Positions 57,001 to 60,000 of a DNA stretch of 64,000 nt are shown one piece after another (position 1 is the first letter of the stretch; each line of letters starts with the position of its first letter). A program made the position numbers. The stretch lies in assembly GCF_058153355.1 (NCBI RefSeq), contig NZ_CM177019.1; one strand, written 5' to 3'.

Positions 57001-60000
57001 TGATGGCGTTAATATTTTAAGTAACGAACTTGCGCATACCTATCTCAATATGCTTACGCATGAGGATCGCCAACGACTGACGCAAATTATTTGTGGTCAG
57101 CAGGTCAATTTTGTTGATGTCCTGACCAGCAACAATACCAATCTGCAAATCAGCTTCGTCCATTCGCGCTATCGTAATGAAAACGTGGCTATTTGTGTGC
57201 TGGTGGATGTTTCTTCGCGCGTGAAGATGGAAGAGTCGTTGCAGGAGATGGCACAAGCAGCGGAACAGGCGAGTCAGTCAAAATCGATGTTCCTTGCCAC
57301 CGTCAGTCATGAGCTGCGAACGCCGCTGTATGGCATTATCGGTAACCTGGATCTGTTGCAAACCAAAGAGCTGCCAAAAGGCGTCGATCGTCTGGTGACG
57401 GCAATGAACAACTCTTCCAGCCTGTTGTTGAAAATTATCAGCGATATTCTCGATTTCTCGAAAATTGAATCAGAACAGTTGAAGATCGAACCGCGTGAGT
57501 TTTCACCGCGTGAAGTGATGAACCACATCACCGCCAACTATTTACCGCTGGTGGTACGCAAGCAGCTAGGCTTGTACTGCTTTATTGAACCGGATGTGCC
57601 AGTGGCCTTAAATGGCGACCCAATGCGTTTACAGCAGGTCATCTCCAACCTGTTGAGTAACGCCATAAAATTCACCGATACCGGCTGTATAGTTTTGCAT
57701 GTTCGCGCTGATGGCGATTATCTCTCTATCCGTGTTCGCGATACCGGCGTGGGGATTCCGGCGAAAGAAGTGGTGCGCTTGTTTGATCCCTTCTTCCAGG
57801 TCGGAACGGGCGTACAGCGTAACTTCCAGGGGACCGGTCTGGGGCTGGCGATTTGTGAAAAACTGATCAGCATGATGGACGGCGACATCTCGGTAGATTC
57901 AGAACCGGGAATGGGCAGCCAGTTTACTGTGCGTATTCCGTTGTATGGCGCTCAGTACCCGCAGAAAAAAAGCGCGGAAGGGTTGAGCGGGAAACGCTGC
58001 TGGCTGGCAGTCCGCAATGCGTCGCTCTGTCAGTTCCTGGAAACCAGTTTGCAGCGCAGCGGCATAGTCGTTACAACATACGAAGGGCAGGAACCGACTC
58101 CCGAAGATGTGTTAATCACCGACGAGGTAGTGAGTAGAAAATGGCAGGGCAGAGCGGTAGTGACCTTCTGTCGTCGTCATATTGGTATTCCGCTGGAGAA
58201 AGCGCCCGGGGAGTGGGTACACAGTGTGGCGGCCCCGCATGAGCTACCGGCATTGCTGGCACGTATATATCTGATCGAGATGGAGAGCGATGATCCTGCT
58301 AACACTCTGCCGACGACGGACAAAGCGGTCAGCGATAACGACGATATGATGATTCTGGTCGTGGATGATCATCCGATTAACCGGCGTCTGCTTGCAGATC
58401 AGTTGGGATCGTTGGGCTATCAATGTAAAACCGCGAATGATGGCGTCGATGCGCTTAATGTACTTAGCAAGAATCATATTGATATCGTGCTTAGCGACGT
58501 CAACATGCCAAATATGGATGGTTACCGCTTGACGCAACGCATTCGTCAGTTGGGGCTGACGTTGCCGGTAATCGGAGTAACTGCTAATGCGCTGGCTGAA
58601 GAGAAGCAGCGGTGTCTGGAGTCCGGTATGGACAGTTGCCTGTCGAAGCCGGTAACGCTGGATGTTATAAAACAGACACTGACGGTATATGCCGAGAGGG
58701 TCAGGAAATCGCGGGAATCGTAGGCTTATAAGACATTTACGCCGCATCTGGCATTCAGTGCAAATGCCAGATGCGACGCTGGTGCGTCTTATCTGGCCTA
58801 CTTTGTTGTAATCCATTGAAATAATGGGAATCGTAGGCCGGATAAGGCGTTTACGCCGCATCCGGCATTCAGTGCAAATGCCAGATGCGACGCTGACGCG
58901 TCTTATCTGGCCTATAGATGATTAGTCTTTATCTGCCGGACTTAAGGTCACAGAAGAGAGATAATTCAGCAGAGCAATATCGTTCTCGACACCCAGCTTC
59001 ATCATCGCAGATTTCTTCTGGCTACTGATGGTTTTGATACTGCGGTTCAGCTTTTTAGCGATCTCGGTCACCAGGAAACCTTCCGCAAACAGGCGCAGAA
59101 CTTCACTCTCTTTTGGCGAGAGACGCTTGTCACCATAACCGCCAGCACTGATTTTTTCTAACAGGCGAGAAACGCTTTCCGGGGTAAATTTCTTCCCTTT
59201 CTGCAGCGCGGCGAGAGCTTTCGGCAGATCGGTCGGTGCACCTTGTTTCAGCACGATCCCTTCGATATCCAGATCCAATACCGCACTAAGAATCGCCGGG
59301 TTGTTGTTCATGGTCAGAACGATGATCGACAGGCTTGGGAAATGGCGCTTGATGTACTTGATTAAGGTAATTCCATCGCCGTACTTATCGCCAGGCATGG
59401 AGAGATCGGTAATCAACACATGCGCATCCAGTTTCGGCAGGTTGTTGATCAGTGCTGTAGAGTCTTCAAATTCGCCGACAACATTCACCCACTCAATTTG
59501 CTCAAGTGATTTGCGAATACCGAACAAGACTATCGGATGGTCATCGGCAATAATTACGTTCATATTGTTCATGTAATAGGCTACCTTGCTACAGCAAGCT
59601 CTTGACATAACTGTCAATGTCGCTGATGTATTTTTCTATTCCTGGAACATCCTTCTCACGAATCAGATGTTCCAGCGTTTCACATAACTGCTTGCCGGGT
59701 ACCAGATTTAGCATGGCAAATACGCCTTTAAGACGATGAGCCGTTTGGGCTAACGCAGCAAAGTCACTGGTTGCTGCTTCAGTATACAGCCTCTTAACAT
59801 CATCCGGTACTGTGTCTACAAAGAGCGCATAATAGCCGCTGGCATGGAGTTGCGCATTTTCATCTCCGCCCAGAGGCGATTCTGTCACCTCTTCCTGCGC
59901 CAGTTGCACTTCAATTAATTGTAAGACCGCTTCCTGCATAGCGTTGCTCATATTGAAGTTGACGCACAATTGACCAGGCCCAATTTCCCGTACGCCAGAC

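Follow-up and report, generated by a model that had tools for sequence, protein, structure and literature searches.

A BIME-2-like REP cluster in the convergent rcsC-rcsB spacer, orthologous to K-12 REP162, with a probable origin by local duplication and a probable role at shared transcript 3′ ends

The convergent genes rcsC and rcsB are separated by a cluster of repetitive extragenic palindromes (REPs) in the DNA analysed here, a window of 64,000 nucleotides from contig NZ_CM177019.1 of NCBI RefSeq assembly GCF_058153355.1. The spacer between rcsC (plus strand) and rcsB (minus strand) is 198 nt long (58724-58921) and contains four REPs of alternating orientation, in the order y, z2, y, z2, which form a tandem of two pairs resembling the bacterial interspersed mosaic elements of the BIME-2 class. 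The cluster is the orthologue of REP162 of Escherichia coli K-12, and is thus an already catalogued, ordinary and known element. It is very probable that this identity, an origin of the second pair by local duplication, and a role in setting the shared 3′ ends of the rcsC and rcsB mRNAs all apply together; the role is shown for the K-12 orthologue, and we infer it for the window strain.

REPs are imperfect palindromes of 30-40 nt with a 5′ GTAG and a mismatch in the stem (Ton-Hoang et al. 2012). The REP head motif GCCKGATGCGRCG, searched with at most one mismatch, occurs at 58740 (-), 58766 (+), 58854 (-) and 58880 (+), in alternating orientation, whereas 0.37 matches are expected per 64 kb. 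The only further match, at 23006, lies in coding-like sequence and has no palindromic partner, and it was set aside as a chance match. Relative to shuffled controls, the segment 58712-58930 folds with unusual stability on both strands (-101.9 kcal/mol, z = -7.9 on the plus strand; -107.3 kcal/mol, z = -12.3 on the minus strand). Collectively, these tests confirm that the repeats are real and lie far above chance expectation.

The individual palindromic units, numbered PU1 to PU4 along the plus strand, differ in how much of the REP pattern they retain. PU2, PU3 and PU4 are 35-36 nt long and form hairpins of -19.7 to -22.1 kcal/mol on either strand (-19.7/-22.1 kcal/mol for PU2 and -20.9 kcal/mol for PU3), each with an AA/GC bubble in the minimum-energy stem. 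The GTAG tetranucleotide is present in PU1 (58720-58723), PU2 (58801-58798, minus strand) and PU3 (58833-58836), and the REP consensus is matched. PU4 carries ATAG at this position in place of the GTAG of the family, and PU1 folds on its own with just -4.3 kcal/mol, versus about -21 kcal/mol for the other REPs. Since y and z2 REPs have complementary heads, whole pairs can also fold as single long hairpins of -40.8 to -54.5 kcal/mol. The plant miRNA models MIR6140, MIR3440 and MIR814 gave sub-threshold Rfam matches on these long hairpins, and were rejected as artefacts of hairpin shape.

The four REPs are organized as two direct units of about 97 nt that are some 90% alike. A repeat search recovered a 73-nt direct repeat of 93% identity (58728-58800 and 58842-58914, spacing 114) and a second direct repeat in the same register (58705-58725 and 58818-58838), both accompanied by nested inverted repeats, and pairwise alignment of the units showed that the homology extends over 58705-58801 and 58818-58915. 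Within each unit, a y-type REP on the plus strand and a z2-type REP on the minus strand stand head to head, joined by a 12-nt linker. Unit 1 (58705-58801), delimited by direct repeats in register at a spacing of 113-114, comprises the tail of rcsC, PU1 (GTAGGCTTATAAGACATTTACGCCGCATCTGGCA, 58720-58753, plus strand), the linker TTCAGTGCAAAT (58754-58765), and PU2 (58766-58801, minus strand, reading GTAGGCCAGATAAGACGCACCAGCGTCGCATCTGGC on that strand). PU1 is a decayed y-type REP with non-standard pairs in its 5′ arm, and PU2 was assigned from its head motif, its hairpin and comparison with REP325, a BIME-2 of K-12. Unit 2 (58818-58915), defined by the repeat search, the alignment and an Rfam match to RF02564, comprises a copy of the rcsC tail, the canonical y-type PU3 (GTAGGCCGGATAAGGCGTTTACGCCGCATCCGGCA, 58833-58867, plus strand), a linker (58868-58879) equal in sequence to that of unit 1, and the z2-type PU4 (58880-58915, minus strand), recognized by sequence, hairpin and comparison with REP325. 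A tail-to-tail linker of 31 nt (58802-58832), placed by the repeat search and the unit alignment, lies between the units, and 6 nt (58916-58921) separate PU4 from the rcsB stop codon (58922-58924).

The cluster abuts both genes closely. Unit 1 begins inside rcsC, and the last 19 nt of the gene (58705-58723) belong to the repeat. The GTAG of PU1 includes the rcsC stop codon TAG (58721-58723), a 4-nt overlap between REP and gene. On the rcsC mRNA the first strong stem lies 17 nt past the stop codon, and the stem of PU4 starts 10 nt downstream of the stop codon of rcsB.

An earlier note on the window had placed a REP/BIME repeat at 58724-58915 between convergent rcsC and rcsB. Both the identification, borne out by four REP heads, synteny with K-12 and the presence of REP162 there, and the boundaries, which run from the base immediately following the rcsC stop codon to the final base of PU4, agree with our results, and a match to known REP families was found in PU3 and in RF02564. 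The description of two near-identical palindromic units captured the two similar units, each of which proves to be a composite of two inverted REPs, giving four in all. The sequence that the note called canonical is so in PU3, which is identical at 35 of 35 positions to y REPs of REP325, and is not in the decayed PU1 or at the ATAG of PU4. The proposal that REPs account for the whole segment is correct for the four REPs themselves; the 31-nt inter-unit linker and the 6-nt spacer are not REP sequence, and the repeat starts 19 nt within rcsC.

Orthology with REP162 is established by position, layout and sequence. A 341-nt query (58650-58990, megablast) matches 5,425 of 5,426 complete E. coli genomes, and rcsC and rcsB are the annotated features beneath the best matches in more than 5,000 annotated genomes. 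The gene order of the window (ompC-micF-rcsD-rcsB-[REP]-rcsC-atoS-atoC) is that of K-12. The assignment of the two genes and their convergent arrangement are correct because genome annotations and K-12 gene order agree. For the K-12 spacer, Table S16 of Harris et al. 2026 (bioRxiv, 10.64898/2026.03.23.713779) gives the element the name REP162 and the class 'Convergent'. REP162 of K-12 MG1655 occupies the same syntenic spacer with the same y-z2-y-z2 layout, the same period of 113-114 nt and a homologous inter-unit linker, and the two alleles are about 92% identical over the 341 nt. They differ in the 5′ arm of PU1, which is lost in the window strain (GGCTTATAAGACA) and reads GGACGGATAAGGCG in K-12; a near-canonical y REP is kept at this position in K-12 and other strains. 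They also differ in PU4, which has ATAG and retains the AA/GC bubble in the window versus GTAG and a perfect palindrome in K-12, and at five positions of the inter-unit linker. The K-12 RefSeq record shows no REP feature at rcsB-rcsC or at REP325, a blank that is uninformative because this copy of the record carries no REP features at all.

Transcript ends mapped in K-12 coincide with the z2 hairpins of the cluster. In Harris et al. 2026 (10.64898/2026.03.23.713779), the K-12 intervals 2316832-2316874 and 2316942-2316985 are given as overlapping bidirectional termination sites, both assigned to REP162, with rcsB:micF:rcsD:rcsC and rcsB:rcsD:rcsC as the genes affected. The K-12 orthologue of PU4 (2316834-2316869) corresponds to termination site #182 and that of PU2 (2316948-2316983) to site #183. 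According to the same source, site #182 was detected in both log and stationary phase and the other site in stationary phase only. Overlapping bidirectional sites form a class (Ju et al. 2019) described as defined by SEnd-seq, distinct from intrinsic terminators and independent of Rho; a stem-loop in the nascent RNA is said to be needed to position head-on collisions between RNA polymerases. The cluster shares with these terminators a GC-rich hairpin that lacks a U-tract and a location between convergent genes. Convergent gene pairs with a REP are further reported to show higher expression of both genes, with half-lives that are not systematically longer.

Applied to the window, these observations suggest that transcripts of both rcsC and rcsB would read into the cluster, where the z2 hairpins could form in either RNA strand and set the overlapping 3′ ends of the two mRNAs. 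The cluster would then act as a hairpin-dependent bidirectional terminator, as a block to 3′ exonucleases, or as both, and the three intact hairpins would provide the shared 3′-end structure of both mRNAs in the window strain.

Several points weigh against this role. The transcript ends were mapped in K-12, and membership in the class of overlapping terminators is established for the K-12 z2 hairpins only. The window allele differs from the allele that was assayed in K-12, because its PU1 is decayed and its PU4 lacks GTAG. A terminator scan found no U-tract after the REP hairpins and returned one weak terminator-like match where 0.5 were expected; lacking a following U-tract, the hairpins are not classical intrinsic terminators. 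Finally, the number of units varies among strains, so tight constraint on the exact architecture is less likely.

The proximity of the REPs to the two stop codons could also bear on translation. In this alternative, the REPs would act mainly on translation: hairpins no more than 15 nt past a stop codon would stall terminating ribosomes and lower the amount of RcsC, RcsB or both, possibly in addition to the role at 3′ ends. REPs less than 16 nt from a stop codon have been reported to stall ribosomes and to down-regulate translation (Liang et al. 2015 via PMC12306157), and the overlap of PU1 with the rcsC stop codon, as well as the 10 nt between the rcsB stop codon and the PU4 stem, fit this arrangement. 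However, PU1 forms no stable hairpin in the window strain, and 17 nt separate the rcsC stop codon from the first strong stem of that mRNA. We regard such an effect as unlikely here.

A bolder proposal is that the allelic states of the cluster (number of units, decay of PU1, loss of the PU4 GTAG) tune the Rcs phosphorelay in a strain-specific manner, like a dial. If so, altered termination, mRNA stability or ribosome stalling near the stop codons would shift the RcsC:RcsB ratio and leave coding and promoter sequences untouched. This is very unlikely.

With respect to origin, the linker between the units preserves a trace of rcsC. The sequence 58818-58836 (GAAATAATGGGAATCGTAG), which includes part of the linker and the GTAG of PU3, shares 16 of its 19 positions with the 3′-terminal 19 nt of rcsC (GAAATCGCGGGAATCGTAG), in register with the unit, and therefore unit 2 probably derives from a local tandem duplication and not from a separate insertion. 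From an ancestral single y-z2 pair adjoining the rcsC stop codon, the two units would have arisen when about 113 nt, the last 19 nt of rcsC among them, were duplicated locally in tandem. Unequal recombination between the units may since have led to repeated collapse to a single unit in some strains. The 16 nt at 58802-58817 (TTTGTTGTAATCCATT) have no convincing similarity to the sequence after PU4 or to that before the rcsC tail, and lacking such a counterpart the junction of the duplication is only partly explained.

Present-day variation at the locus is compatible with this history. The linker sequence 58806-58838 occurs in 4,436 of 5,426 complete E. coli genomes (82%), never inside annotated genes and at a median of one place per genome with a maximum of three, showing it to be single-copy and locus-specific. 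The genomes also contain 35 additional copies of the linker, which may mark alleles of three or four units at the locus. Some strains have one unit and a spacer of 84-85 nt. The single-unit E. coli alleles are mosaics that combine markers of the left part of unit 1 with those of the right part of unit 2, and their crossover points differ. In AR13438, a decayed PU1 of the window type is fused to a PU4 of the K-12 type; FDAARGOS_1371 retains a z2 of the unit-1 type; and the alleles of Nissle 1917 and YZMc3-1 are different again. These mosaics are consistent with recurrent unequal crossover, as judged from sequence comparison.

A degenerate-pattern scan, run on one genome per species, found 11 loci. 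In Escherichia sp. MOD1-EC7003 a single y-z2 unit adjoins the rcsC stop codon, and this plausibly represents the ancestral state. The Citrobacter spacer contains two other REPs placed tail to tail, and in Pseudescherichia vulneris and its relatives there is just one REP, which belongs to a different family. In Enterobacter, Leclercia and Pluralibacter, the spacer is occupied by an A-tract, a GC-rich hairpin and a T-tract, which constitute a bidirectional intrinsic terminator. This terminator resembles the cluster in lying between the same gene pair and in providing a single strong hairpin usable from both strands, and differs from it in its flanking A- and T-tracts and in belonging to no repeat family. 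A simple terminator scan of the spacers of these three genera returned nothing convincing, although the A-tract, hairpin and T-tract are plain by sequence, apparently because the tracts pair with each other, extend the stem and leave too few T's. The REP cluster would thus fill the slot that is held by a bidirectional intrinsic terminator in related genera.

The same variability raises the question of whether the cluster is neutral or selfish repeat DNA, mobilised or amplified by TnpA(REP) and tolerated in a permissive convergent 3′ spacer with no function specific to the locus. Strains differ in having one to at least two units, individual REPs decay (PU1 and the PU4 GTAG in the window), and the spacers of related genera contain different REP families or none. 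Moreover, TnpA(REP) cleaves and recombines BIMEs in vitro, and the number of tandem copies varies among strains (Ton-Hoang et al. 2012). However, transcript ends have been mapped to the K-12 orthologue, and the pairing of the z2 stems has been preserved by a compensated T/A exchange. Where REPs are missing, other genera still have a terminator hairpin between rcsC and rcsB, and for this reason some hairpin is apparently needed there. Neutrality remains a tentative alternative, on the unlikely side, to the shared 3′-end role.

BIME-2 elements consist of pairs of y and z2 REPs joined by a short linker and repeated in tandem, with tandem numbers that differ between strains (Ton-Hoang et al. 2012). 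The window has the sequence y(+)-12 nt-z2(-) twice, in two tandem copies with a period of 113-114 nt. One of its closest known relatives outside the locus, REP325, lies between yjdM and yjdN in K-12 and has five y REPs identical to PU3, z2 units of 36 nt with the same arms save for a compensated T/A pair, a 12-nt head-to-head linker with a shared GTGC core, and a tandem layout. REP325 differs in having about six units, a period of 100 nt, a tail-to-tail linker of 17 nt and a position between tandem genes, versus two units, a period of 113-114 nt, a 31-nt linker drawn from the rcsC 3′ end and convergent genes in the window. REP161 of K-12 (2304506-2304982, in the eco-mqo spacer) is a five-unit y-z2 tandem with a period of 113 nt, as in REP162, and with a 24-nt tail-to-tail linker unrelated to that of REP162.

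The inter-unit linker appears atypical for this class, in which successive BIMEs are separated by a family-type flanking motif (s, l or r). Its 31 nt are unlike the 10-24-nt linkers of REP161, REP163, REP325 and nrdA-nrdB, and on account of this dissimilarity, its single-copy state and the duplicate of the rcsC tail within it, we class the element as BIME-2-like, or atypical. Assignment to BIME-1 or RIP elements, which combine z1 and y REPs with a long L linker and an IHF site, was rejected, since the head-to-head linkers are 12 nt, the units are of z2 length (36 nt), and the IHF consensus WATCAANNNNTTR has no match in 58700-58930. The idea that the rcsC tail (GCGGGAATC-GTAG) is a general flank of BIME-2 elements was likewise rejected: an 8-mer is shared with the REP325 linker and is absent from REP161, REP163 and nrdA-nrdB. 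This 8-mer, GCGGGAAT, is common to the rcsC tail and to the z2-side linker of REP325 (GCGGGAATTT-GTAG) at an equal distance from the GTAG. The sharing may reflect chance, or the 8-mer may be a remnant of a BIME flank that has come to encode the last codons of RcsC.

BIME-2 elements are reportedly DNA-gyrase binding sites, as Espeli and Boccard are said to have described in 1997, and a gyrase site in this spacer would relieve positive supercoiling between the converging transcription units. The composition of y and z2 REPs, the tandem layout and the convergent genes on either side are those that such a site would have, whereas the inter-unit linker is atypical for BIME-2. We consider this quite unlikely as an account of the cluster.

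The cluster belongs to a dispersed sequence family. In each of 5,425 E. coli genomes the 341-nt query has several matches, with a median of at least 30 places, which identifies its repeat portion as the sequence of a dispersed family, and all REP copies in 57 kb of K-12 are intergenic. The Rfam model RF02564 (naRNA4) matches unit 2 (58836-58912) with 84.3 bits on the plus strand and 62.9 on the minus strand, above its gathering score of 59.5. Unit 1, with 50.9 and 36.4 bits, stays below this score. Read literally, the match would make the unit a gene for a nucleoid-associated small RNA (sRNA) similar to naRNA4, processed from a y-z2 unit and condensing the chromosome together with HU. However, the consensus of RF02564, GGCCGGauAAGGCGUUUACGCCGCauCCGGCA-linker-GCCuGaugCGaCGCUUGCGCGuCUuauCaGGCC, aligns with both the y and the z2 halves (E = 6e-16), the z2 stems differing from the model by a compensated T/A pair, and the model is itself the y-linker-z2 unit of REP325, because of which any BIME-2 unit scores with it. 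The failure of unit 1 to reach threshold, the position of the locus between rcsC and rcsB and not between yjdM and yjdN, and a 2026 study that reports REP325/naRNA4 to be without measurable nucleoid compaction, with REP-REP contacts unseen, also argue against an sRNA gene, which is highly improbable here. Because RF02564 passes its threshold, automated annotation would produce a spurious 'naRNA4' gene at this locus, and likewise at any BIME-2 unit.

The proper label is therefore a REP/BIME element, the orthologue of REP162, and not an sRNA gene. The additions made here (four REPs, a stop codon within GTAG, capture of the rcsC tail, decay of PU1 and PU4, polymorphism in unit number, and terminators or other REPs in outgroups) leave this classification unchanged, and their significance is little beyond correct annotation. 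The locus exemplifies how the GTAG of a REP can supply a stop codon, how a duplication can capture the 3′ end of a gene, and how a tandem can collapse recurrently by unequal recombination. Should the allelic differences alter the levels of RcsC or RcsB, the locus would offer a modest instance of regulatory diversity created by REPs in an envelope-stress pathway.

The rcsC coding sequence (55874-58723, plus strand) specifies 949 aa ending in ...VRKSRES, and was taken from the open reading frame (ORF) list with support from the rcsC annotation in more than 5,000 genomes. The rcsB coding sequence (58922-59572, minus strand) was assigned from the ORF list and from the annotation in matched genomes, where it is 651 nt long. 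MicF sRNA (Rfam, 116.8 bits) is found at 62580-62673 on the minus strand, its expected place beside rcsD and ompC.

The repeat segment, which the earlier note had described as free of ORFs, has no gene annotation in any matched RefSeq genome; two mechanical ORFs do overlap it, at 58689-58811 (plus strand) and 58244-58861 (minus strand). The latter, of 205 aa, is antisense to the 3′ end of rcsC, has a REP-born start codon, an ATG within PU3, and is unannotated in every matched genome.

Elsewhere in the window, a group II intron (51349-53719) lies inside atoC on the strand opposite to the gene, which it splits into fragments at 50140-51354 and 53513-53884 (both minus strand). The intron matches the Rfam families RF02012 (51411-51558, plus strand) and RF00029 (53641-53717, plus strand) and carries an ORF of 580 aa for a reverse transcriptase/maturase (51894-53636, plus strand). 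Among the 5,426 complete E. coli genomes, this intron was found on two plasmids only, where it lies beside hok (97% identity), and in no chromosomal atoC. At 5340-5528 and 8691-8843 (both plus strand), isrK and C4 antisense RNA are matched, followed by two tRNA genes; these RNA families are typical of prophage regions of the P4/P2 type.

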